Assembly (NCBI GenBank): GCA_046758565.1
Contig: JBHIAO010000171.1
Location: 1-11,063, forward strand
Length of the DNA: 11,063 nucleotides
Direction of reading: 5' to 3'
Origin: Anaerolineae bacterium
GTDB taxonomy: Bacteria > Chloroflexota > Anaerolineae > Epilineales > JAANWY01
Shown here: piece after piece, positions 1 through 11,063 of the stretch
Layout of the letters: each line of letters starts with the position of its first letter
How positions within the stretch are numbered: position 1 is the stretch's first letter
Program-made: the position numbers and the translations under genes
The notes under the pieces: model-generated
What the model was told of the DNA's origin: nothing
Database searches by the model: none
What the model saw: the letters and a program-made list of their open reading frames with translations, nothing else

Positions 1-854
1 TTGGGTCGGAACCACCTGTCGAAGAGCTGGTCCAGAGTGCCGTCGGCCTGCATGGCCTCCAGCACCATGTTCGTCGGCTCGATGAGGTCGGAGCCCTGTT
101 GGAAGACGAACCCCAGGAACTCGCCGGCGGTCACACGCGGACCGGCGATCTTCAGCTTGCCCAGGTTCTCGTTCATGAAGCCGACGGCCGCCACCTCGTC
201 GATGATGACCGCGTCCACATCGCCCGACATGAGGGCGCTGACGGGCAGGTCGAAGGTGTCGAAGGACTGGATGCGCCCCTCGCCCACGAGCTTGATGGCG
301 GTGGCCTCATTGGTGGTGCCCAGTTGGACTCCGATGACCTTGTCGGTGAGGGCGACCAGGGAGTCCTTGTCCTGGATGTCGGCTTCGTCGGCGCGGACCA
401 GGATGACCTGGCCGTACTCCATGTAGGGGTCGGAGAAGGCCACGACCTTCTTGCGCTCGTCGGTGATGGTGATGCCGTCAGCAGCGACGTCGAACTCACC
501 GGCGGCAGCGGCTTCGAAGATGCCCTCCCAGGCAGTTTCGACGAAGACCGGGCTGCAGTTGAGACGGCTACAGATTTCACGCCAGGCGTCGTAGTCCCAG
601 CCAACGCCTTCACCAGAGTCCTTGTCGATGACGTTGAAGGGCGGGTAGGCATTCTCCACCGCGATCCGCACCTCACGCCCGCCCAGGTCAGGGATCGCAG
701 CAGCGGGCTCCGGTGTAGGGGGCGGGGGAGCTATGGTTGCTGTGGGCGGAGGAGGTGAGGTGGGGGTGGGAGCAGCCGCCCTGCCACACCCGGCCACTAG
801 CAAAGCCAGAACTGCCAATGTCAGCAGCAGGAGGAACGCAATGTGCTTGCGCAT
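1..854 (-). CDS. Polar amino-acid ABC transporter substrate-binding lipoprotein (family-3 SBP), 5' partial; the 3' end lies beyond position 1
   Basis: I translated the minus strand by hand from the ATG at 854..852 and found no stops down to position 1. The product begins MRKHIAFLLLLTLAVLALLVAGCGRAAAPTPTSPPPTATIAPPPPTPEPAAAIPDLGGREVRIAVENAYPPFNVIDKDSGEGVGWDYDAWREI...GEFDVAADGITITDERKKVVAFSDPYMEYGQVILVRAD...DAVIIDEVAAVGFMNE.... It has a lipoprotein signal peptide with an LVAGC lipobox, then a Pro/Thr/Ala-rich linker, then SBP_bac_3-type motifs (GITITxER..VxFSxPY). An AGGAG RBS sits 8 nt upstream of the ATG. The gene is absent from the supplied ORF track; only its antisense and alternate-frame ORFs (99..758 +, 173..676 -) are listed. 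Confidence 0.8.
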   Translation of the reverse strand, partial: MRKHIAFLLLLTLAVLALLVAGCGRAAAPTPTSPPPPTATIAPPPPTPEPAAAIPDLGGREVRIAVENAYPPFNVIDKDSGEGVGWDYDAWREICSRLNCSPVFVETAWEGIFEAAAAGEFDVAADGITITDERKKVVAFSDPYMEYGQVILVRADEADIQDKDSLVALTDKVIGVQLGTTNEATAIKLVGEGRIQSFDTFDLPVSALMSGDVDAVIIDEVAAVGFMNENLGKLKIAGPRVTAGEFLGFVFQQGSDLIEPTNMVLEAMQADGTLDQLFDRWFRP

Positions 855-1089
855 ACCCTTTTCTCCTCTCTGTTCGCTCAGGTCGGTGCAATCTTGAGAC
901 ACAACGCGGGGAGCCAGCCCGGCAATGTCAGACGTACTACGACTTCGTTGGCACGCATCCCTCCTCTCCTTGGACTCTCTATTGCTGGGGTTTGGCAATT
1001 GTTTCGTAGGGTTCAACGACCTCAATCAGTATAGGCGAAAGTTTCAGCACAGTCAAACACCGGGACATGGAGCATCTCGCGGTGGCATC

Positions 1090-3830: not shown

Positions 3831-5147
3831 TTAAGCCAACCCGCTGAAAACCTCGTGAATTCTGCCGGCTTTGATGACCGTGGATACCAGGTCCTCCCCG
3901 AACCGATACGCCAGGTGACGGTAATCTGGCACGTCGAGGATGACGAGGTCGCCGGCCTTGCCCGGTTCCAGGCTCCCCACTTTCTCGCCGACGCCTGACG
4001 CATAGGCCGCATTGATCGTGGCGGCCACGACGGCCTCGGCAGGTGTCAAGTGCAGGTAGCGCGTGGCCAGGGCGATCATGAACGGCATTGAAACACACCA
4101 GCATGTGCCTGGATTGATGTCGGTCCCCAGGGCAATCGACAGCCCTCGTTCAATCATGGTACGGGCGTCAGCGTAGTGATTGGAGCCTAGACCGAAGGTC
4201 GTCCCCGGCAACAATACGCCGACCATGCCGACCTCGGCCATTTGCTCGATTTCTGCGTGGGGAGTTACGGTCAGGTGATCGGCGGACGTGGCGCGCAGCT
4301 CAGCCGCCAGTGCTGCACCGCCCAGGGATCCGAACTCGTCGGCATGTATCTTGAGCCCCAGCCCCAACTCGCGCGCCCTTTCCAGCACACGCCTGGACTG
4401 GGCCAGATTGAAGGCCCCGGCGTCGCAGAAGACATCGACGAAGACCGCCACTGGGTGATCCTTGCCGGCTGCCACGTTGGCGAGTGGGGGCAGGAGTGCA
4501 TCGGCCACGGCGATGCGTGGCAGCATCTCATCGACAACCTCGTCGATGAAGTCGTCAGCTCGGCCGCGGTATTCGTCTGGAACGGCGTGGGCTGCCAGGA
4601 ACGTGGGTATCAGATCGATGGGATGCTCGGTGTTCAGGACGGAAATGGCTGCCAATATCTTCAGCTCGTCGTCGAACGTCAGGCCGTAGCCAGTCTTGGC
4701 CTCGGCAGTCGTGGTCCCATAGGTCAGCATCGCGTTGAGTCGCTTGCGCGACTGTGCGATGAGCTCTTGTAGCGACGCCAGTCGCGTCGCGCGCACCGTG
4801 GACATGATGCCGCCACCGGCCGCCATGATTTTCTGGTAGGTCGCGCCAGCAATGCGCTGTTCAAACTCCTCCACCCGGTCGCCGGCAAAGACCACATGCG
4901 TGTGGGCATCCACGAAGCCGGGTATGATGACGTGGCCGGCAGCGTCCATCTCTGCCCTCGCCACAACAGCGCTCTTAACCTCGGTCGTCGGCCCGACATG
5001 GGTGATCTGGCCATCGAGAATAGCGACAGCGCCGTTCTCAATCAGGCCAATGTCTCGCTGATTGACACCACTCAGCGGGCCATCTGGCGCAGTACAGGTG
5101 AGTAGTTGGGAGGCACTGTGGATGAGTAGATCTACGTTCTTAGTCAT
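3831..5147 (-). CDS. hutI: Imidazolonepropionase (HutI, amidohydrolase superfamily), 438 aa
   Basis: The ORF carries HutI hallmarks: PGFVDAHTHVVFAG (metal-binding HxH), GGGIMSTVRATR, MLTYGTTTAEAKTGYGL, LKIHADEFGSLGGAALAAELRATSADHL, LLPGTTFGLG, ALGTDINPGT, NAAYA.G.GE. Collinear similarity to B. subtilis HutI runs along the full length. The start ATG at 5147..5145 is 18 nt after the livF stop. Confidence 0.9.
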   Translation of the reverse strand: MTKNVDLLIHSASQLLTCTAPDGPLSGVNQRDIGLIENGAVAILDGQITHVGPTTEVKSAVVARAEMDAAGHVIIPGFVDAHTHVVFAGDRVEEFEQRIAGATYQKIMAAGGGIMSTVRATRLASLQELIAQSRKRLNAMLTYGTTTAEAKTGYGLTFDDELKILAAISVLNTEHPIDLIPTFLAAHAVPDEYRGRADDFIDEVVDEMLPRIAVADALLPPLANVAAGKDHPVAVFVDVFCDAGAFNLAQSRRVLERARELGLGLKIHADEFGSLGGAALAAELRATSADHLTVTPHAEIEQMAEVGMVGVLLPGTTFGLGSNHYADARTMIERGLSIALGTDINPGTCWCVSMPFMIALATRYLHLTPAEAVVAATINAAYASGVGEKVGSLEPGKAGDLVILDVPDYRHLAYRFGEDLVSTVIKAGRIHEVFSGLA

Positions 5148-5165: not shown

Positions 5166-5870
5166 TTATATCAGTAGATACCTCTGCCTCACTTCGTCGT
5201 TCTCTCTTAGTTCCGCAACGCTCCCCTCGTAACGGATTCGGCCGTTATCAATAATGTAGCCGCGATCGCTTAGCCTTAGGGCAGACCTCACATTCTGTTC
5301 GGCCAGGAGAACAGTCAAGCCGGCCTCCTTCAGCTTTGCTATCTGCTCCTCCAGGGCGCGCACCAGCAGCGGCGCCAGCCCCTCAGTGGGCTCGTCAAGG
5401 AGCAAGAGTTCTGGATTGCCCATTAGAGCCCGCGCGATGGCCAACATCTTTTGCTCGCCACCGCTCAGGTGACCGCCCCGGTTGGACTCTTTCTCTTTCA
5501 GGACGGGGAAGAGCTCGTAAACCTTCTCATTATCCCACCCCCAGTCCCAGTTACCACTTGCCGGCTTGGCAGCTATCTCGAGATTGTCCCGAACCGTGAG
5601 ATCAGCGAAGATCCTCCTATCGTCAGGGACGTAGCCTATCCCTTTGCGGGCCCGCAAATACGGTTCTTCACCAGTTATTTCCTCCCCCTTGAGCTTGATG
5701 CTCCCTTGCTGCGGCGGCGTAAGACCCATGATGCTCTTCAGAGTGGTGGTCTTTCCTGCCCCATTCCGGCCCAGGAGACACACGACCTCGCCCGGCTCAA
5801 CCCTGAGCGAGACGCCAAACAGGATATGGCTCAAACCGTAGTAAGTGTGAATTCCCTCCACCGCAAGCAT
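5166..5870 (-). CDS. livF: HAAT-family (LIV-type) ABC transporter ATP-binding protein, LivF-like, 234 aa
   Basis: It has a Walker A (GRNGAGKTTT), an ABC signature (LSGGEQKM) and a Walker B (LLLLDEP). The length is typical of the second ATPase in a LIV system. Its ATG overlaps the livG stop (ATGA at 5872..5868). Confidence 0.85.
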   Translation of the reverse strand: MLAVEGIHTYYGLSHILFGVSLRVEPGEVVCLLGRNGAGKTTTLKSIMGLTPPQQGSIKLKGEEITGEEPYLRARKGIGYVPDDRRIFADLTVRDNLEIAAKPASGNWDWGWDNEKVYELFPVLKEKESNRGGHLSGGEQKMLAIARALMGNPELLLLDEPTEGLAPLLVRALEEQIAKLKEAGLTVLLAEQNVRSALRLSDRGYIIDNGRIRYEGSVAELRENDEVRQRYLLI

Positions 5871-6604
5871 CACTGGCCTCCGAGATAAGCCTCCTGCACT
5901 TCCTTGTTGGTTTTCACCTCTTCCAGCGTTCCCTGGATGAGGGTTCGTCCCTGGTGCATAACCATAATGCTCTCGGCAACAGAGAATACCACATCCATGT
6001 CATGTTCGCAAAACAAGATGGTTATGCCCCGTGTATGGGCGAGTTGCCTAACGAGTTCCATCGTTGCGAACGTTTCCTCCGGAGACATACCGGCGGTAGG
6101 TTCATCCAGAATCAGCAACTCCGGTTCGTTGCCTAAAGCCATAGCTATCTCCAGGACTCTCTGGTCGCCATGGGACAGGGAGCCGGCGATGTTCCTGGCT
6201 TTATCTGAAAGACCCAAGCTTCCCAATATACTGTGTGTCTCTTCAACGGCCAGGGTCCGGGCTGGGCGGAAAAGGTGAGAGCTTCTGCGTTGCTGGGAGA
6301 GTACGGCTACCTGAACGTTCTCGAAAACGGTGAGCCGGGGGAAGATGTTGGCTATTTGAAACGACCTGGCAATTCCTCTCTCGCAAATCTGGTACGGGGG
6401 CAGTCCACTGATATCCTCCCCCTTAAAGATTATCTTTCCCCGATTCGGCTTCAGTTGACCGGTAATGAGATTAAACAAGGTGGTTTTGCCGGCGCCGTTG
6501 GGTCCGATCACCACCACCAGCTCACCATCCGCCACGGTAAGGTTCGCTCCGTTCACCGCCACAAAGTCGCCGAACGACTTGTATACGGCGTCCACCTGCA
6601 ACAT
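5870..6604 (-). CDS. livG: HAAT-family (LIV-type) ABC transporter ATP-binding protein, LivG-like, 244 aa
   Basis: It has a Walker A (GPNGAGKTTLFN), a signature (LSHGDQRVLEIAMAL) and a Walker B (LLILDEP). Its ATG at 6604..6602 abuts the livM stop (6607..6605). Confidence 0.85.
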   Translation of the reverse strand: MLQVDAVYKSFGDFVAVNGANLTVADGELVVVIGPNGAGKTTLFNLITGQLKPNRGKIIFKGEDISGLPPYQICERGIARSFQIANIFPRLTVFENVQVAVLSQQRRSSHLFRPARTLAVEETHSILGSLGLSDKARNIAGSLSHGDQRVLEIAMALGNEPELLILDEPTAGMSPEETFATMELVRQLAHTRGITILFCEHDMDVVFSVAESIMVMHQGRTLIQGTLEEVKTNKEVQEAYLGGQ

Positions 6605-7570
6605 CTACTTGCTGCCCCTTTCCGCTACCGCTTTTTCAGGCTGGGGCTCAAATCGCTCCAGCAAGTAACCCAGAACCCCCTGTGGCAAGAAGAAGATGAG
6701 CAGGATCAGGACTACCCCCAAAACCAAAGTCCAGTACTCCGTATAACTGCCGACGAAAGTTCGCAGTGCCACGATCATTGCCGCCCCTACCGCCGGTCCA
6801 AGAAAAGTGAACCAACCTCCTAGAAGGCACATGATGAATATCTCGAGCGACAGAACCCAGAATAGCAGGTCAGGGAAAACGGAATGTTCTAGCACCACGA
6901 AAAGAACGCCGGCCACCCCAGCGAAGAAGCTGGCAATCACTATTGCCAGCAGTTGATGGCGCCTCACATTAACACCGATCGCCTCACATCGCTGCGGATT
7001 GTCCCTGATGGCCTGAAGTGTAGCCCCGAACGGGGATTTCACAATGATGAACAGAGCTACCAGACAAATTACAAAGATGAGCAGAATGAAGTAATACGAA
7101 TTGTTGACGGGGGATAGGATTGACGGGATAGGAATGCCGTGTAGGCCATCATCTCCGCCAGTAAAGGAGTACCATCGAAAAACGACGGCCCAGATCAGTG
7201 AACCTAAGGAAATCTGGAGCATACCAAAATACAGCTCGGTCAACCGAACGCAAAACCATCCGATGAGCAGCCCTACCACTGCTGCTGCGATTGGTCCAGC
7301 GATGAAGCCCACCCACGCAGGCAGGGAAGTTTTCGTCAACGTCAGAGCGACGGCATATGCCCCTACGCCATAGAAAACGGCGTGATGAAACTGAAACAGA
7401 CCGCCGTAGCCGAGGGCCAGGTTGAGGCTCATAGCCACCAAGGCGGTGACGAAAATCAAAGCCAGTAGATAGACGTAGAATAGGGGTACCAAGGCCGGCA
7501 AGACCAGCAAGACAGTCAGAATAGCTACTGCTGACCCGAGCCACCTCCGATTAACGATTCCTGTGAGCAA
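6605..7570 (-). CDS. livM: HAAT-family ABC transporter permease, LivM-like, 321 aa (TTG start)
   Basis: It is a polytopic membrane protein with 8 or more hydrophobic helices and a LivM-type architecture. It is followed immediately by livG. The predicted start is TTG at 7570, with an AGGAGG only 4 nt upstream (short spacing). This suggests translational coupling to livH, whose stop is at 7585..7583. Confidence 0.8.
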   Translation of the reverse strand: MLTGIVNRRWLGSAVAILTVLLVLPALVPLFYVYLLALIFVTALVAMSLNLALGYGGLFQFHHAVFYGVGAYAVALTLTKTSLPAWVGFIAGPIAAAVVGLLIGWFCVRLTELYFGMLQISLGSLIWAVVFRWYSFTGGDDGLHGIPIPSILSPVNNSYYFILLIFVICLVALFIIVKSPFGATLQAIRDNPQRCEAIGVNVRRHQLLAIVIASFFAGVAGVLFVVLEHSVFPDLLFWVLSLEIFIMCLLGGWFTFLGPAVGAAMIVALRTFVGSYTEYWTLVLGVVLILLIFFLPQGVLGYLLERFEPQPEKAVAERGSK

Positions 7571-7582
7571 ATCCCCTCCTCG

Positions 7583-8479
7583 TTACCAGTCCGATCCAAA
7601 CAGCCCTCTAGGTCGCAAGAGCAGCACGATCACCACCGCAGCATAGGGGAAAACGATGGCGAATTGCGGCCAGAGGAGAATACCAACGGACTGGGTCACG
7701 CCAAAAATGAGAGAACCAACCAGAGCGCCCCAGATGTTGCCCAACCCCCCAATGGTAACGATAAGAAAGGCTTCGATAATGATAGTGTGATCCATGCCCA
7801 AAGTGACGCTCACGGTAGGGGCGATCAGAGCCCCACCCAGGCCGGCAAGGTAGCAGCCAAGTACAAACGCGCCGGCAAATACCAGGCTTACATTTATTCC
7901 CAGCACACCCACCATCTCTCTGTCAACTGCCGCTGCCTGAGAAATCTTGCCCAACTTGGTTTTGGTCACAAAGAGCCATAGACCTACAGCCACCAGAGGA
8001 CCAACAAGGAGAAGAAACAGATTGTACCGGGGCAAGGGCGCACCAAGTACGGAAACCGAGCCACTGAGGATGCTGGGCGCCACGACCGACCTGTACGTTG
8101 GACCCCAAACCAACTTCACCAGATCACCGAGGATAAGCATTAAGGCGAAGGTAAATAGGATGAGCATCAAGTGCTCTCTCTGGTAGAGATGACGGAACAA
8201 CGCTCTCTCCACAATCAAGCCGATGAGAGCGACGGCCAAGGGAGCGAGTATTAGGGCCAGCCAGAAACCGACGGGGCTACTACCGAACTGGGTGGAAATG
8301 GAATAGGCTGCGAACGCTCCAATCATGTAGAGCGAGCCGTGGGCGATGTTCGGGACTCTAAGTACTCCAAGAATGAAACTTAGCCCAGCGGACACAATAA
8401 ACAAGACCATCGTCCGGCTAAGTCCAACCAACAACTGGCCACCCAGAGTAGCGAAGCTGATGCTTTGCCCGAGTTCCAC
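7583..8479 (-). CDS. livH: HAAT-family ABC transporter permease, LivH-like, 298 aa
   Basis: It is a polytopic membrane protein carrying the conserved LivH permease region (...GINVSLVFAGAFVLGCYLAGLGGALIAP...). It is the first of two permease genes downstream of the binding-protein gene. Confidence 0.8.
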   Translation of the reverse strand: MELGQSISFATLGGQLLVGLSRTMVLFIVSAGLSFILGVLRVPNIAHGSLYMIGAFAAYSISTQFGSSPVGFWLALILAPLAVALIGLIVERALFRHLYQREHLMLILFTFALMLILGDLVKLVWGPTYRSVVAPSILSGSVSVLGAPLPRYNLFLLLVGPLVAVGLWLFVTKTKLGKISQAAAVDREMVGVLGINVSLVFAGAFVLGCYLAGLGGALIAPTVSVTLGMDHTIIIEAFLIVTIGGLGNIWGALVGSLIFGVTQSVGILLWPQFAIVFPYAAVVIVLLLRPRGLFGSDW

Positions 8480-8507
8480 AGTGCAGCTTTCCTTTGCAAA
8501 ACGAACT

Positions 8508-8542
8508 AGTAGCTGGGGGCTGACAGCCCCCAGCTACTTTTT
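8508..8542. terminator. Perfect 13-bp GC-rich stem-loop (AGTAGCTGGGGGC-tgaca-GCCCCCAGCTACT) flanked by A5 and T4, in the livK-livH intercistronic gap; candidate partial (attenuating) intra-operon terminator / mRNA stabiliser
   Basis: On the minus-strand mRNA the stem is followed by AGUUCGUUUUG, an interrupted U tract. On the plus strand it is followed by TTTT. It lies between the livK stop (8601..8599) and the livH start (8479). Confidence 0.5.
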
Positions 8543-8598
8543 AGGCGTGATTCATCTACGGTTCGAATGCCCCTTGACCATTGAGTGGTAGTCGGAGA

Positions 8599-9909
8599 TT
8601 ACGAACCTCCACGCGCTTGCTCAATATCTTCGCACGTGGGCATGACATCCGGGCCACTCAAGGTCTCGATTTCGGAGGAAACGAGAAACTCGTATTCTGG
8701 CACCTTCTTGGTCACACCCATGTAGATCGGCAGCACCGCCTGATGGTCACAGGCTCGCATCTCTATCTCGCCGGCTGGGCCATCTACCTTCAACCCCTCC
8801 AGAGCATCAATGAACTTCTCCTTGTCCAAGGAGCCCGCCTTCCTATACGCCTCGGCTATGAACTGCGCTGTCATATAGCCATGAAAAGCAGGAAAGCCTG
8901 GTGGATGCCCATAGGCCTCCTCAAACGCTTCAACGAACGCCTTATTGGCGGGGGTGTCCGGATAGTAGAAGTGATAGTCCATGCTGCCCATCACACCCTC
9001 AGGTGCCTCCCCACCCAGTGGTTTGAGAACAGCGTGATCTGTCGCCGTGTGAACCCAGACCTGAACCTGCTCAGACATGCCGGTTGCCTTGACTGCCTTC
9101 ATGACATTGGCCATGCTGGAGCCACCAGTCGCGAAAATGACGGCGTCTGGTTTAGCCGCCACAATCGCAGTGATATACGGTATCAGGTCAGGTTCGCCTG
9201 TCTTCCACCACGACTCCCCTACGATTTCCACGTCGGGCTTAAGTGCCTTCAGATTGCGCTGAACCGCGTTCGCTATGGCGTGTCCATACTCGTAGTCATC
9301 CCCGGCAACCCAGTACTTAGCGAAGGGTTTCTTCGCTAGCGCAGTCGCCCCGGCTTTGCCAGCCATGGCAGTGTTCTCACCGGTGGCGAAAACGTAACGA
9401 TGTCCTTTCTCGCCGGTAATGCGCTCACTCTTCGCAATCCACACGATGAGTGGGACTTTCTGTTCTTTGGCATAATCGGACACGGCCAGGGCGACACCGC
9501 TGCTAATTATGCCAACGAGGACGTCCACCTGCTCCTTCAGTACCAGCTCTTTGGCCATGCTGAGACCGAGATCCACCTTGTACTTACTGTCCCGGGTGGT
9601 ATACTCAATCGTCGTCCCCAGGACGCCCTCTTTGTTGATCTCCTCCAAGGCCAGCTTGAAGCCGTTGAGAGCATCTTCGCCGAAAACCGCCGGCGGTCCG
9701 CTGTAGGTATCGATGATCCCCACCTTGATAGGGCGATCAACTTTGGGTGCGCCTTGTGGTGCTGCAGGAACACAAGCAACACCCAAGGCCGCGATCAAAC
9801 CAAGCGCCACGCATACCAGCGCAGCTTTCTGCAGGAATTGAGACCTGCCTAGCTTCTGCACGATGAGTTGTCCTACTGGACGACTAAACCGGTTCTGCTG
9901 ACTCGTCAT
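8599..9909 (-). CDS. livK: HAAT-family periplasmic substrate-binding protein (LivK/LivJ-like, type-I PBP), probable lipoprotein, ~436 aa
   Basis: The start was chosen at the ATG at 9909..9907 (MTSQQNRF...). AAGGAGG lies 9 nt upstream. The track ORF extends 26 codons further, to 9987, with no RBS there. It has a signal peptide with Cys (AALVCVALGLIAALGVAC) and then a LivK-type fold (KVGIIDTYSGP..., GESWWKTGEPD...). Confidence 0.85.
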   Translation of the reverse strand: MTSQQNRFSRPVGQLIVQKLGRSQFLQKAALVCVALGLIAALGVACVPAAPQGAPKVDRPIKVGIIDTYSGPPAVFGEDALNGFKLALEEINKEGVLGTTIEYTTRDSKYKVDLGLSMAKELVLKEQVDVLVGIISSGVALAVSDYAKEQKVPLIVWIAKSERITGEKGHRYVFATGENTAMAGKAGATALAKKPFAKYWVAGDDYEYGHAIANAVQRNLKALKPDVEIVGESWWKTGEPDLIPYITAIVAAKPDAVIFATGGSSMANVMKAVKATGMSEQVQVWVHTATDHAVLKPLGGEAPEGVMGSMDYHFYYPDTPANKAFVEAFEEAYGHPPGFPAFHGYMTAQFIAEAYRKAGSLDKEKFIDALEGLKVDGPAGEIEMRACDHQAVLPIYMGVTKKVPEYEFLVSSEIETLSGPDVMPTCEDIEQARGGS

Positions 9910-10039
9910 TTCTCGGCGCCTCCTTTGCGTTGTTGGACACGATAAGCTCGGCTTCGGTGCATGCCTCTTATCGCGCCTGTCTATCATATGCCACCATCAC
10001 ACGACCTCTGCCGACTTGTCGGTTTGAGGCGAAGGTTCA

Positions 10040-10201
10040 CTAGGCGTATTTGTAGGCGATAAACAGAAGAGTTCCCAAAATGGCACACTGTCTGACGAGA
10101 GTGGGAACAAAAAGGGTCGAGCCAATGATGACCATCGTGGCGGCATCATAATACCACATCACAGATACTACGTCAAGAGGTTGTGAGGGCGTGGCGGACA
10201 T
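10040..10201 (-). CDS. Hypothetical 53-aa hydrophobic small protein (MSATPSQPLDVVSVMWYYDAATMVIIGSTLFVPTLVRQCAILGTLLFIAYKYA); overlaps the last 34 nt of the rSAM gene
   Basis: GGAGG (rc of 10211-10215) lies 9 nt upstream of the ATG at 10201..10199, and the stop TAG is at 10042..10040. There are two hydrophobic stretches. The region has lower GC (~48%) than its flanks. This reading conflicts with a strong promoter (10148-10176) that would start transcription inside this ORF. Only the C-terminal 31 codons, from the ATG at 10135, would then be on that transcript. Confidence 0.3.
   Translation of the reverse strand: MSATPSQPLDVVSVMWYYDAATMVIIGSTLFVPTLVRQCAILGTLLFIAYKYA
10148..10176 (-). promoter_or_regulatory. 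Near-consensus sigma70 promoter on the minus strand: TTGACG (rc 10176..10171), 17-nt spacer, TGgTATTAT extended -10 (rc 10153..10148); TSS ~10141, candidate promoter of the livK operon
   Basis: The minus-strand read is cctcTTGACGtagtatctgtgatgtggTATTATgatgccgccacgATG. The spacer is exactly 17 nt. A TG sits 1 nt upstream of the -10 hexamer. The rSAM stop codon TAG lies inside the spacer. Confidence 0.4.
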
Positions 10202-11063
10202 TTCGAAAGCCCTCCGTACACATCACGCTTCGGGCAGTGGGGGTCGCTCTCGGCGAAACTGCCACCGAAGGCCATGACCACTGCCGGGCAGCCTTTGCAC
10301 AGCTCCAGGTAGGAGCACGCTCTGCACCGACCTCGCATCTCACCCTCTAGTTGCCGGAATCGCTGGAACACCTTCGAGCCCCGCCAGGCCCGCGTGAAGT
10401 CCCCCTGGCCCACATCCGACCAGCGTACGTGACTACACGGCAGCACCCGGCCGTCCTGGAGAACGGTCACAAACTTCCTCGCAGCGCAGCAACCCCACAC
10501 CCCGGCCGCGTACAGTCGCTCCGGGGGCCGGTCGGTGAGGAGGAAGGTGAGGGAGGCATCCAGTGTGGTCTTGCACTCTGGCGACAGACCTGGGAGGTCT
10601 CCTCGTTCTCCAACATGATCAGATGCGTTGGCTGAAGCTGTTGTTGAGCTTGCGGAATGCCATGTGGAGACCTCCGAGGTCTTGACTCGGTCTTTGGCTG
10701 TGGATTGTAGCTTGCGTAACACTCTCCGCACAACCCGATAACCCTCGGCATCCAACGATTCCCGCTCCAGCCAGTCCCCGTCCGTGGTCGGAGGCTTGGG
10801 GCGCAGGAGGTTGACGGTCGCGGCCCCCAGCCGCCGGCCCAGACGGATGACCTGCTCCAACTCCGCCACGCTGCTCCGGGTGATGAGGAAGTTGATGCCA
10901 AAGCGCAGGCCGGCCTGCCGGCAGGTGTGAATGGCTGCCATGGCGCCCCCGAAGTTGGGCCGGGTGGTCGCATTTGTTTCCTCCGTCGCCCCGTTGAGGG
11001 AGATTTGCACCTGACCCACGCCGGCCTCTTTCAGCGCCACCGCCAGGTCCGGCGTTAGCCGGT
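10168..11063 (-). CDS. Radical SAM / SPASM-domain protein (peptide-modifying maturase class), 5' partial; the N-terminal CxxxCxxC region lies beyond the window
   Basis: The frame stays open to the window edge. The first residues read ..LTPDLAVALKEAGVGQVQISLNGATEETNATTRPNFGGAMAAIHTCRQAGLRFGINFLITRSSVAELEQVIRLGRRLGAATVNLL, the end of the rSAM TIM barrel. The C-terminal SPASM signature is GVWGCCAARKFVTVLQDGRVLPC ... FTRAWRGSKVFQRFRQLEGEMRGRCRACSYLELCKGCPA ... DPHCP. This gives auxiliary-cluster cysteines in a CxxCx5CxxC arrangement. The stop TAG is at 10170..10168. Confidence 0.8.
   Translation of the reverse strand, partial: RLTPDLAVALKEAGVGQVQISLNGATEETNATTRPNFGGAMAAIHTCRQAGLRFGINFLITRSSVAELEQVIRLGRRLGAATVNLLRPKPPTTDGDWLERESLDAEGYRVVRRVLRKLQSTAKDRVKTSEVSTWHSASSTTASANASDHVGERGDLPGLSPECKTTLDASLTFLLTDRPPERLYAAGVWGCCAARKFVTVLQDGRVLPCSHVRWSDVGQGDFTRAWRGSKVFQRFRQLEGEMRGRCRACSYLELCKGCPAVVMAFGGSFAESDPHCPKRDVYGGLSKCPPRPHNLLT

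Follow-up and report, generated by a model that had tools for sequence, protein, structure and literature searches.

The stretch of DNA studied here, 11,063 nucleotides from an Anaerolineae bacterium of the Chloroflexota (assembly GCA_046758565.1, contig JBHIAO010000171.1) and called the window below, ends on its right side within a gene for a radical S-adenosylmethionine (rSAM) enzyme with a SPASM auxiliary-cluster domain. The gene is read on the minus strand and is followed by a 53-codon small open reading frame (sORF), a spacer of lower GC content and the livKHMGF genes of a predicted branched-chain amino-acid ATP-binding cassette (ABC) transporter (Table 1). Enzymes of the rSAM/SPASM type are usually mined as markers of gene clusters for ribosomally synthesized and post-translationally modified peptides (RiPPs), and a preliminary description of this DNA had tentatively tied both the sORF and the low-GC patch to the maturase. 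Our analysis points elsewhere. The enzyme would form a two-gene module with a protein of about 272 amino acids, encoded directly upstream, and would modify that protein, while the sORF and the low-GC patch would be an unrelated spacer carrying a promoter for the liv genes. Taken as a whole, we consider this reading somewhat better than an even bet, with a probability of roughly 0.55.

Table 1. Positions, strands and main properties of the features discussed in the text; the last line refers to a related locus
Feature	Position	Strand	Remarks
rSAM/SPASM maturase-type gene, 3' part	10168..11063	-	297 codons and stop; from translation and family alignment
rSAM barrel, C-terminal half (fragment residues 1-118)	10708..11061	-	PF04055 match at residues 2-73; family-invariant columns
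Hypervariable low-complexity linker insert (fragment residues 120-163, STAKDRV...SPEC)	10573..10704	-	From comparison of linkers in the family
SPASM auxiliary Fe-S cluster domain (fragment residues 191-276)	10234..10491	-	TIGR04085, PF13186, conserved Cys
rSAM C-terminal tail, 21 residues, unconserved	10171..10233	-	Contains Shine-Dalgarno-like motif and start codon of the sORF
GGAGG Shine-Dalgarno-like motif	10211..10215	-	9 nt upstream of the sORF ATG; read from sequence
Orphan hydrophobic sORF, 53 codons	10040..10201	-	ATG 10201-10199; overlaps the rSAM reading frame by 34 nt
Sigma-70-like promoter (predicted)	10148..10176	-	TTGACG (10176-10171), 17 nt, TGg-TATTAT (10156-10148); 10/12 with extended -10
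Spacer from rSAM stop to livK start	9910..10167	-	258 nt, GC 0.51; apparent site of a gene replacement specific to this lineage
livK-H-M-G-F branched-chain amino-acid ABC transporter operon	5166..9909	-	Open reading frames, GC 0.53-0.57; 80 orthologous loci
Partner protein gene in relative L001	L001 7038-7856

The rSAM/SPASM enzyme and its family

The open reading frame (ORF) of the maturase-type gene runs off the right end of the window. Positions 10171-11061 translate into 297 residues ahead of a TAG stop codon (10170-10168), and the product is 100% identical to NCBI MFQ5856760.1, which is labelled 'SPASM domain-containing protein, partial [Anaerolineae bacterium]'. The reading of this end as about 298 C-terminal residues of an rSAM enzyme with a complete SPASM domain, already given in the preliminary description, holds up well: the domain passes the curated cutoffs of both TIGR04085 (35.4 bits, cutoff 27) and PF13186 (23.8 bits, cutoff 21.5), and it contains the seven SPASM cysteines that are conserved among 36 family members (fragment residues 191, 209, 246, 249, 255, 258 and 276). 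The same domain aligns to the SPASM domain of PqqE (residues 259-355 of 6c8v), which is the only PDB match of the fragment. The barrel scores 19.7 bits against PF04055, below the cutoff of 29.5, because the fragment is truncated and the segment with the CX3CX2C motif lies beyond the contig end; a full-length orthologue (P0003) reaches 67.7 bits, and the orthologues carry the motif as CDQACAGCFY. About two-thirds of the gene, its 3' part, is present. The missing 5' part, some 135-150 codons that would specify an N-terminal domain resembling a RiPP recognition element (RRE) and the CX3CX2C motif, appears to lie past the contig end; its product would begin roughly MxxLSPxTxxRPEPxGAL and include CDQACxGCFY.

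Our searches found 189 homologues, of which the best 120 are 58-100% identical and about 420-485 amino acids long, almost all of them from Anaerolineae or Chloroflexota. The maturase is kept at 58-89% identity in more than 100 genomes, and the family alignment conserves both the CX3CX2C motif and the seven SPASM cysteines. The enzyme belongs to a tight and so far unclassified Chloroflexota family of rSAM/SPASM proteins. When the fragment was scanned against NCBIfam, every family stayed far below its cutoff, the best being AhbD, TIGR04053, NirJ2, PqqE and MftC, and the full-length orthologue fared no differently (AhbD 126.6, NirJ2 120, PqqE 111 and MftC 109.5 bits, against cutoffs of 265-500). 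Three candidate assignments were rejected in this way, namely the heme b synthase AhbD (TIGR04545, cutoff 500), where the fragment scores 98.4 bits; PqqE (TIGR02109, cutoff 381), where it scores 59 bits and where pqq genes are not common to 33 family loci; and MftC (TIGR03962, cutoff 265), where it scores 57.6 bits and where the neighbouring gene encodes 272 residues with a variable C-terminus. The preliminary description had asked for a profile search of this kind, and no curated non-RiPP SPASM family claims the enzyme. The defence-system models of PADLOC gave only generic viperin rSAM-core matches, and literature searches for SPASM enzymes from Anaerolineae or Chloroflexi turned up no relevant work.

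Full-length members of the family carry about 90 additional N-terminal residues. In the AlphaFold 2 (AF2) model these fold into three strands (residues 8-13, 16-21 and 26-31) followed by three helices (32-43, 51-59 and 71-84), with a block-mean predicted local distance difference test score (pLDDT) of 73-94. This beta3-alpha3 topology is like that of an RRE, a provisional assignment of a structural kind, based on the predicted topology and on the whole-chain fold matches. In Foldseek, SuiB, SkfB, PqqE and CteB head the whole-chain matches of the full-length orthologue, and the anaerobic sulfatase-maturating enzyme (anSME) comes after them. A PDB search with the family profile found PqqE (6c8v, E 8e-21) and also SuiB, whose alignment begins at profile position 2.

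Between the barrel and the SPASM domain lies a linker that had been singled out earlier as unusually long. Its length is real, since the 73 residues between RPKPPT and TLDAS make it the third longest of 36 (family median 44.5, range 34-92), but linkers are hypervariable across the family, and this one is no peculiarity of the window; its insert shows no conservation in the family alignment. In several members (P0040, P0011, P0016, P0008 and P0030) the linker contains tandem DLRPETC heptad repeats, with up to seven copies in P0040, a repeat expansion that is unusual within an Fe-S enzyme.

An upstream partner protein as candidate substrate

A gene for a protein of about 272 amino acids lies directly upstream of the rSAM gene in all 32 family loci that have upstream sequence. 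In 27 of these 32 the gap between the two genes is -1 to +11 nt, and such a short gap or stop/start overlap suggests that their translation is coupled. When the neighbouring genes of 33 loci were clustered, the rSAM enzyme (31 loci) and this partner (30 loci) were the only common families; the next most frequent were urocanase (7 loci), an aminotransferase (6) and hutI (5), and no conserved short precursor, peptidase, transporter or stand-alone PqqD was found among the 33. The two genes make up a self-contained module and not a RiPP cluster. A distant homologue of the enzyme (L036, 38% identity) has no partner-like or tail-like ORF upstream.

The preliminary description had looked for the real partner of the enzyme upstream, beyond position 11063, and the orthologous loci bear this out. 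It had pictured that partner as a short leader-core precursor at the edge of a peptide-modification cluster, and here the comparison gives a different answer, as the conserved neighbour is a folded protein of about 270 residues and nothing beyond the two genes is common to the loci.

The partner family is 60-89% conserved and goes under 'hypothetical' in those sources that give it a name. Pfam, NCBIfam, PADLOC and the PDB yielded no sequence match for it, and it contains no Cys-rich or sulfatase motif. The AF2 model is confident overall (pLDDT 87.8), with weak fold neighbours only. Residues 1-18 (MLKAxWxGYEIDSSEAAYE) are almost entirely invariant across Chloroflexota lineages, and residues 1-13 are modelled at a pLDDT below 50 despite this invariance. 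We also considered an MftA-like C-terminal Val-Tyr on the partner, which was ruled out by the varying C-termini of the orthologues (HMIY, TYCL, TYVL, AYPL).

We propose that the enzyme is built of three domains, an N-terminal RRE-like domain, the rSAM barrel and a SPASM domain that carries two auxiliary clusters, and that its gene is the second of a two-gene operon that begins with the partner gene. The enzyme would dock the partner and engage its invariant N-terminal tail through the RRE-like domain. A 5'-deoxyadenosyl radical would then modify an aromatic or acidic residue of the partner post-translationally, with the SPASM clusters handling electron transfer. We infer that the enzyme acts on the partner, probably at the invariant tail, which would be the best candidate site and is a region of very low AF2 confidence. 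The outcome would be the maturation of a protein, as with anSME or QhpD, and not a secreted RiPP; the high conservation of both proteins and their housekeeping neighbours favour physiological maturation over a secreted natural product. The earlier idea of a RiPP-maturase-like rSAM enzyme acting on an adjacent product survives in part: the enzyme is of the maturase type, with SuiB, SkfB, PqqE and CteB as its best fold matches, but no short precursor is conserved beside it.

Several known enzymes resemble the family in some respects and depart from it in others. SuiB (StrB) is the maturase that forms the Lys-Trp crosslink of streptide, and SuiB, SkfB and CteB are RiPP maturases that combine an RRE and an rSAM barrel with a SPASM or twitch domain. 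They provide the best whole-chain fold matches (5v1q, E 3.7e-15, TM-score 0.55; 6efn; 5why), the profile alignment with SuiB begins at residue 2 of the family profile, and the order of domains appears to be the same, with a beta3-alpha3 domain (predicted in the present family) at the N-terminus, then the CX3CX2C barrel and, at the C-terminus, a domain for auxiliary clusters. In contrast, sequence identity to the three is only 14-16%, the N-terminal domain of the family lacks an RRE/PqqD match at the sequence level, the neighbouring gene encodes a folded protein of 272 residues instead of a precursor of 20-60, and no protease or exporter is conserved at the family loci. A streptide-type Lys-Trp link is unlikely, since Lys3 of the partner tail is not invariant but may be K, R or Q.

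PqqE, the enzyme of pyrroloquinoline quinone (PQQ) biosynthesis that crosslinks Glu to Tyr, is the closest solved relative by sequence, and it is likewise a SPASM enzyme acting with an RRE, although the RRE of the present family is provisional and taken from a model. PqqE relies on a separate PqqD, whereas no pqqA-D genes are common to the family loci, and the partner tail has its residues spaced E-x2-Y where the PqqA motif is E-x3-Y. AhbD and NirJ, rSAM enzymes that serve the synthesis of heme and heme d1, rank first among the NCBIfam matches of the family, with scores far below the cutoff of 500; the present family has an extra N-terminal domain, and tetrapyrrole genes are not conserved near its loci. 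The conceptually closest cases are anSME, a significant fold match (4k37, E 3e-10), and QhpD, an SPASM enzyme whose protein-sized substrate, QhpC, is encoded alongside it. In both, as here, an rSAM/SPASM enzyme is paired with an adjacent protein-sized partner, the role of substrate being our proposal in the present case. No sulfatase or quinohemoprotein amine dehydrogenase context is found at the family loci, and anSME has no N-terminal RRE-like domain.

The same matches can be used to argue for a cofactor or small-molecule rSAM enzyme in the manner of AhbD, NirJ or PqqE, with the 272-aa protein as a scaffold, a chaperone or an enzyme that uses the product. This is the main rival on mechanism, and we consider it unlikely. 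The ranking of AhbD, NirJ2 and PqqE at the head of the NCBIfam scan speaks for it, as does PqqE as the best PDB sequence match, and the 60-89% conservation and the housekeeping neighbours (purA, RNase PH, mutS, hut) resemble primary metabolism more than a RiPP locus. However, the scores all fall short of the curated cutoffs by a factor of 3-5, and neither tetrapyrrole nor pqq genes are common to the loci. The extra N-terminal domain has an RRE-like topology, and peptide maturases head the whole-chain fold matches.

Several points weigh against modification of the partner by the enzyme and against the wider picture in which we place it. Adjacency and translational coupling fit an accessory or chaperone role of the partner equally well. 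The partner gene lies outside the window, and its place in the present genome, probably just beyond 11063, is projected from the orthologues. Four of the N-terminal domains have no Pfam match at E<=10, PqqD (PF05402) included, and a profile of 13 such domains has no significant PDB match. The SPASM region of the AF2 model is of low confidence, with a pLDDT around 40-55. Lastly, the codon usage of the sORF and its livK-like Shine-Dalgarno spacing, described below, argue that the sORF is not mere spacer.

It is tempting to take the proposal one step further and to see in the two genes an undescribed Chloroflexota protein-maturation pair, in which a repurposed RiPP-type maturase reads the tail of the partner as a RiPP leader or core and places a radical crosslink or cofactor on a full-size protein. 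In this specific form we regard the idea as rather doubtful. What the loci display is a family with RiPP-maturase architecture locked, in several Chloroflexota lineages, to a conserved protein-sized partner of no recognisable family. The new element would be this partner, which lies outside the window, and the enzyme matches none of the curated families tested. If the enzyme does modify the partner, this would be a new rSAM-dependent protein modification, possibly yielding a protein-derived cofactor, and it would give a function to two families now annotated as hypothetical.

The two-gene module recurs near histidine-utilisation genes, as in L001 (4212-6661 and 10567-11883) and at other loci, with urocanase at 7 and hutI at 5, the window included. 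Either shared synteny or a functional connection might account for this.

The sORF and the spacer before livK

The sORF described earlier, with 53 codons, a 34-nt overlap with the rSAM gene and a GGAGG motif 9 nt ahead of its ATG, is present as reported, and its start resembles that of livK, which has AAGGAGG at 9925-9919, the same 9-nt spacing and its ATG at 9909. The length of the sORF is uninformative, as 67% of Markov-random sequences of 351 nt with matching composition contain a complete ORF of 53 codons or more, and mechanical ORF calls show that ORFs of 40-100 codons straddling the rSAM stop are common in the orthologous loci. Its codon usage, unlike its length, carries a signal beyond chance. 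Over the 41 non-overlapping codons the log-likelihood ratio is 0.28, which corresponds to the 26th percentile of true-frame windows from the genes of the window; off-frame windows reach this value in only 1.5% of cases and stop-free random sequences in only 0.3% (p about 0.003-0.015). GC at third codon positions (GC3) is 0.60, above that at the first and second positions (GC1 and GC2), as in the membrane genes livH and livM. The peptide has a grand average of hydropathy (GRAVY) of 0.94, with one 19-residue window above 1.6 on the Kyte-Doolittle scale, and its hydrophobic stretch is broken by Asp19 and Arg37.

Relatives of the sORF were not found. A phmmer search of 1.84 billion representative proteins returned the sORF itself and nothing else, although at this database size a query of 53 residues could bring only fairly close homologues to significance. 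The matching protein comes from a Logan contig identical to positions 8123-10236 of the window, where a gene caller had made the call; it is absent from every NCBI source, and the GenBank annotation apparently did not call the sORF. The read set SRR29324601 likewise carries identical sequence. In searches restricted by synteny and run at E up to 50, tblastn against the 34 orthologous maturase loci and 80 metagenomic livK loci (livK orthologues 67-81% identical) gave nothing better than E = 0.57, and neither NCBIfam nor PADLOC produced a match. Two candidate identities were rejected: a YrhK-like small membrane protein (PF14145; 16.4 bits, E = 0.0084, gathering cutoff 26.1), and a remnant of the 204-aa membrane gene that stands behind the rSAM gene in the closest relatives, for which tblastn found no similarity to the window.

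These results bear first on the sORF as a substrate of the maturase, or as an immunity or export helper, at the edge of a RiPP cluster. The sORF adjoins the rSAM gene, overlaps its 3' end and has a ribosome-binding motif of its own, its codon usage is coding-like, and the enzyme has the architecture of a RiPP maturase. Against this, none of the 34 orthologous loci has a related downstream ORF, although the maturase itself is 58-89% conserved; no homologue exists among the 1.84e9 proteins; no peptidase or transporter is common to the loci; and the overlap sits in the unconserved C-terminal tail of the enzyme, where only 2 residues follow the last cysteine in 11 of 36 family members and the sequence varies in the others. 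The reading is largely refuted because the sORF does not co-occur with the maturase, and we consider it exceedingly improbable. The sORF is an orphan and would not be a part of the maturase system, and the conservation beside orthologous maturases on which the preliminary description had made its case depend is not seen. The case calls for care in genome mining: when a small hydrophobic ORF with a convincing Shine-Dalgarno motif adjoins a maturase, it counts as evidence of a precursor only if the two are also found together in other genomes.

The sORF may or may not be translated. It could be a genuine, lineage-specific small hydrophobic or membrane protein, translated from a transcript that reads through from the rSAM gene and unrelated to the maturase, a possibility that is compatible with the two-gene module and to which we give not quite an even chance. 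The log-likelihood ratio of the codons, the excess of GC3 over GC1 and GC2, the start geometry identical to that of livK, the hydropathy with its one segment above 1.6 and the call on the Logan contig are all in keeping with such a protein. The failure of every search made to find a homologue, the absence from NCBI sources and the frequency with which ORFs of this length arise by chance are not, and the Pfam match to YrhK stays below its cutoff. Moreover, the charged Arg and Asp leave no clean transmembrane helix, and a promoter-like site lies inside the sORF, from which a liv transcript would begin downstream of the sORF ATG.

That site overlaps the rSAM stop codon, points at livK and is the best of its kind upstream of livK. 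The whole window holds three sigma-70-like sites that score at least 10/12, all of them outside the long conserved genes, two in the spacer at 859-1422 and one inside the sORF. The best explanation for the spacer is that it carries a strong predicted sigma-70-like promoter for liv. It has no Rfam match at E<=1, its RNA folding (z-score -0.71) is no better than that of shuffled sequence, no terminator was found and only weak repeats, and its DNA is similar to the related loci only over the last conserved rSAM codons. The low-GC stretch of about 48%, noted earlier, is a real dip (about 0.48-0.49; sORF 0.494, or 0.476 outside the overlap, against 0.643 for the rSAM gene and 0.559 for livK), but it is no deeper than in other spacers of the window, which reach 0.415-0.55. 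In place of a connection with the maturase, the patch would be the rSAM-liv spacer with its promoter-like site.

The sORF shares the strand of livK and lies 130 nt ahead of it, which also raises the idea that the sORF, or a product of the internal start at M23 (MVIIGSTLFVPTLV...), tunes the liv operon as a leader peptide or upstream ORF rich in branched-chain residues. The promoter-like site would place the start of transcription just upstream of M23, near 10141, and 30% of the sORF residues are Ile, Leu or Val, but such a content is ordinary for a hydrophobic peptide. There is no terminator or antiterminator between the sORF and livK, the leader folds no better than shuffled sequence and matches nothing in Rfam, and none of the 80 livK-orthologous loci has a related upstream ORF. 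We consider this very improbable.

The liv operon and the genes beyond it

The first gene of the liv operon was called on the Logan contig as a livK of 436 amino acids with Peripla_BP_5/6 domains. The genes downstream of the rSAM gene differ between family loci (RNase PH, the 204-aa membrane protein and others). L001 and L037 are the nearest relatives that come on long contigs, and both have the 204-aa membrane protein gene behind the rSAM gene. L001 then continues with a hexapeptide-repeat gene and the series hutI, nfeD, flotillin and SBP_bac_3; L037 has in common with it at least the 204-aa gene. From position 5147 down to 1 the window holds the same hutI-nfeD-flotillin-SBP series as L001. 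By this comparison, the livKHMGF operon appears to have replaced the first two genes that follow the rSAM gene in L001, with the sORF and the low-GC patch exactly at the junction.

The composition of the liv operon (GC 0.53-0.57, GC3 0.61-0.68) differs from that of the flanking rSAM, hutI, nfeD and flotillin genes (GC 0.61-0.64, GC3 0.73-0.75). Its lower GC and the replacement of two genes suggest a recent acquisition or rearrangement.

Within the operon, between the livK stop and the livH start (8508-8538, minus strand), a GC-rich hairpin with a perfect stem of 14 bp (AGTAGCTGGGGGCTGTCAGCCCCCAGCTACT) precedes a T-rich run. The arrangement resembles an intra-operon terminator or attenuator and could raise expression of the binding protein over that of the permease genes.

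Farther to the left, a lower-GC spacer of 560 nt (859-1422) separates flotillin from the SBP_bac_3 lipoprotein gene. Its two promoter-like sites lie on opposite strands, one on the plus strand at 1090-1118 (11/12, extended -10) and one on the minus strand at 1056-1028 (10/12), and the equivalent spacer of L001 contains a minus-strand gene call of 47 amino acids. The lipoprotein gene itself (1-855, minus strand; MRKHIAFLLLLTLAVLALLVAGCG..., with a lipobox) would encode the substrate-binding protein of an amino-acid ABC transporter, is open at the left end of the window and is syntenic with the SBP_bac_3 gene of L001.

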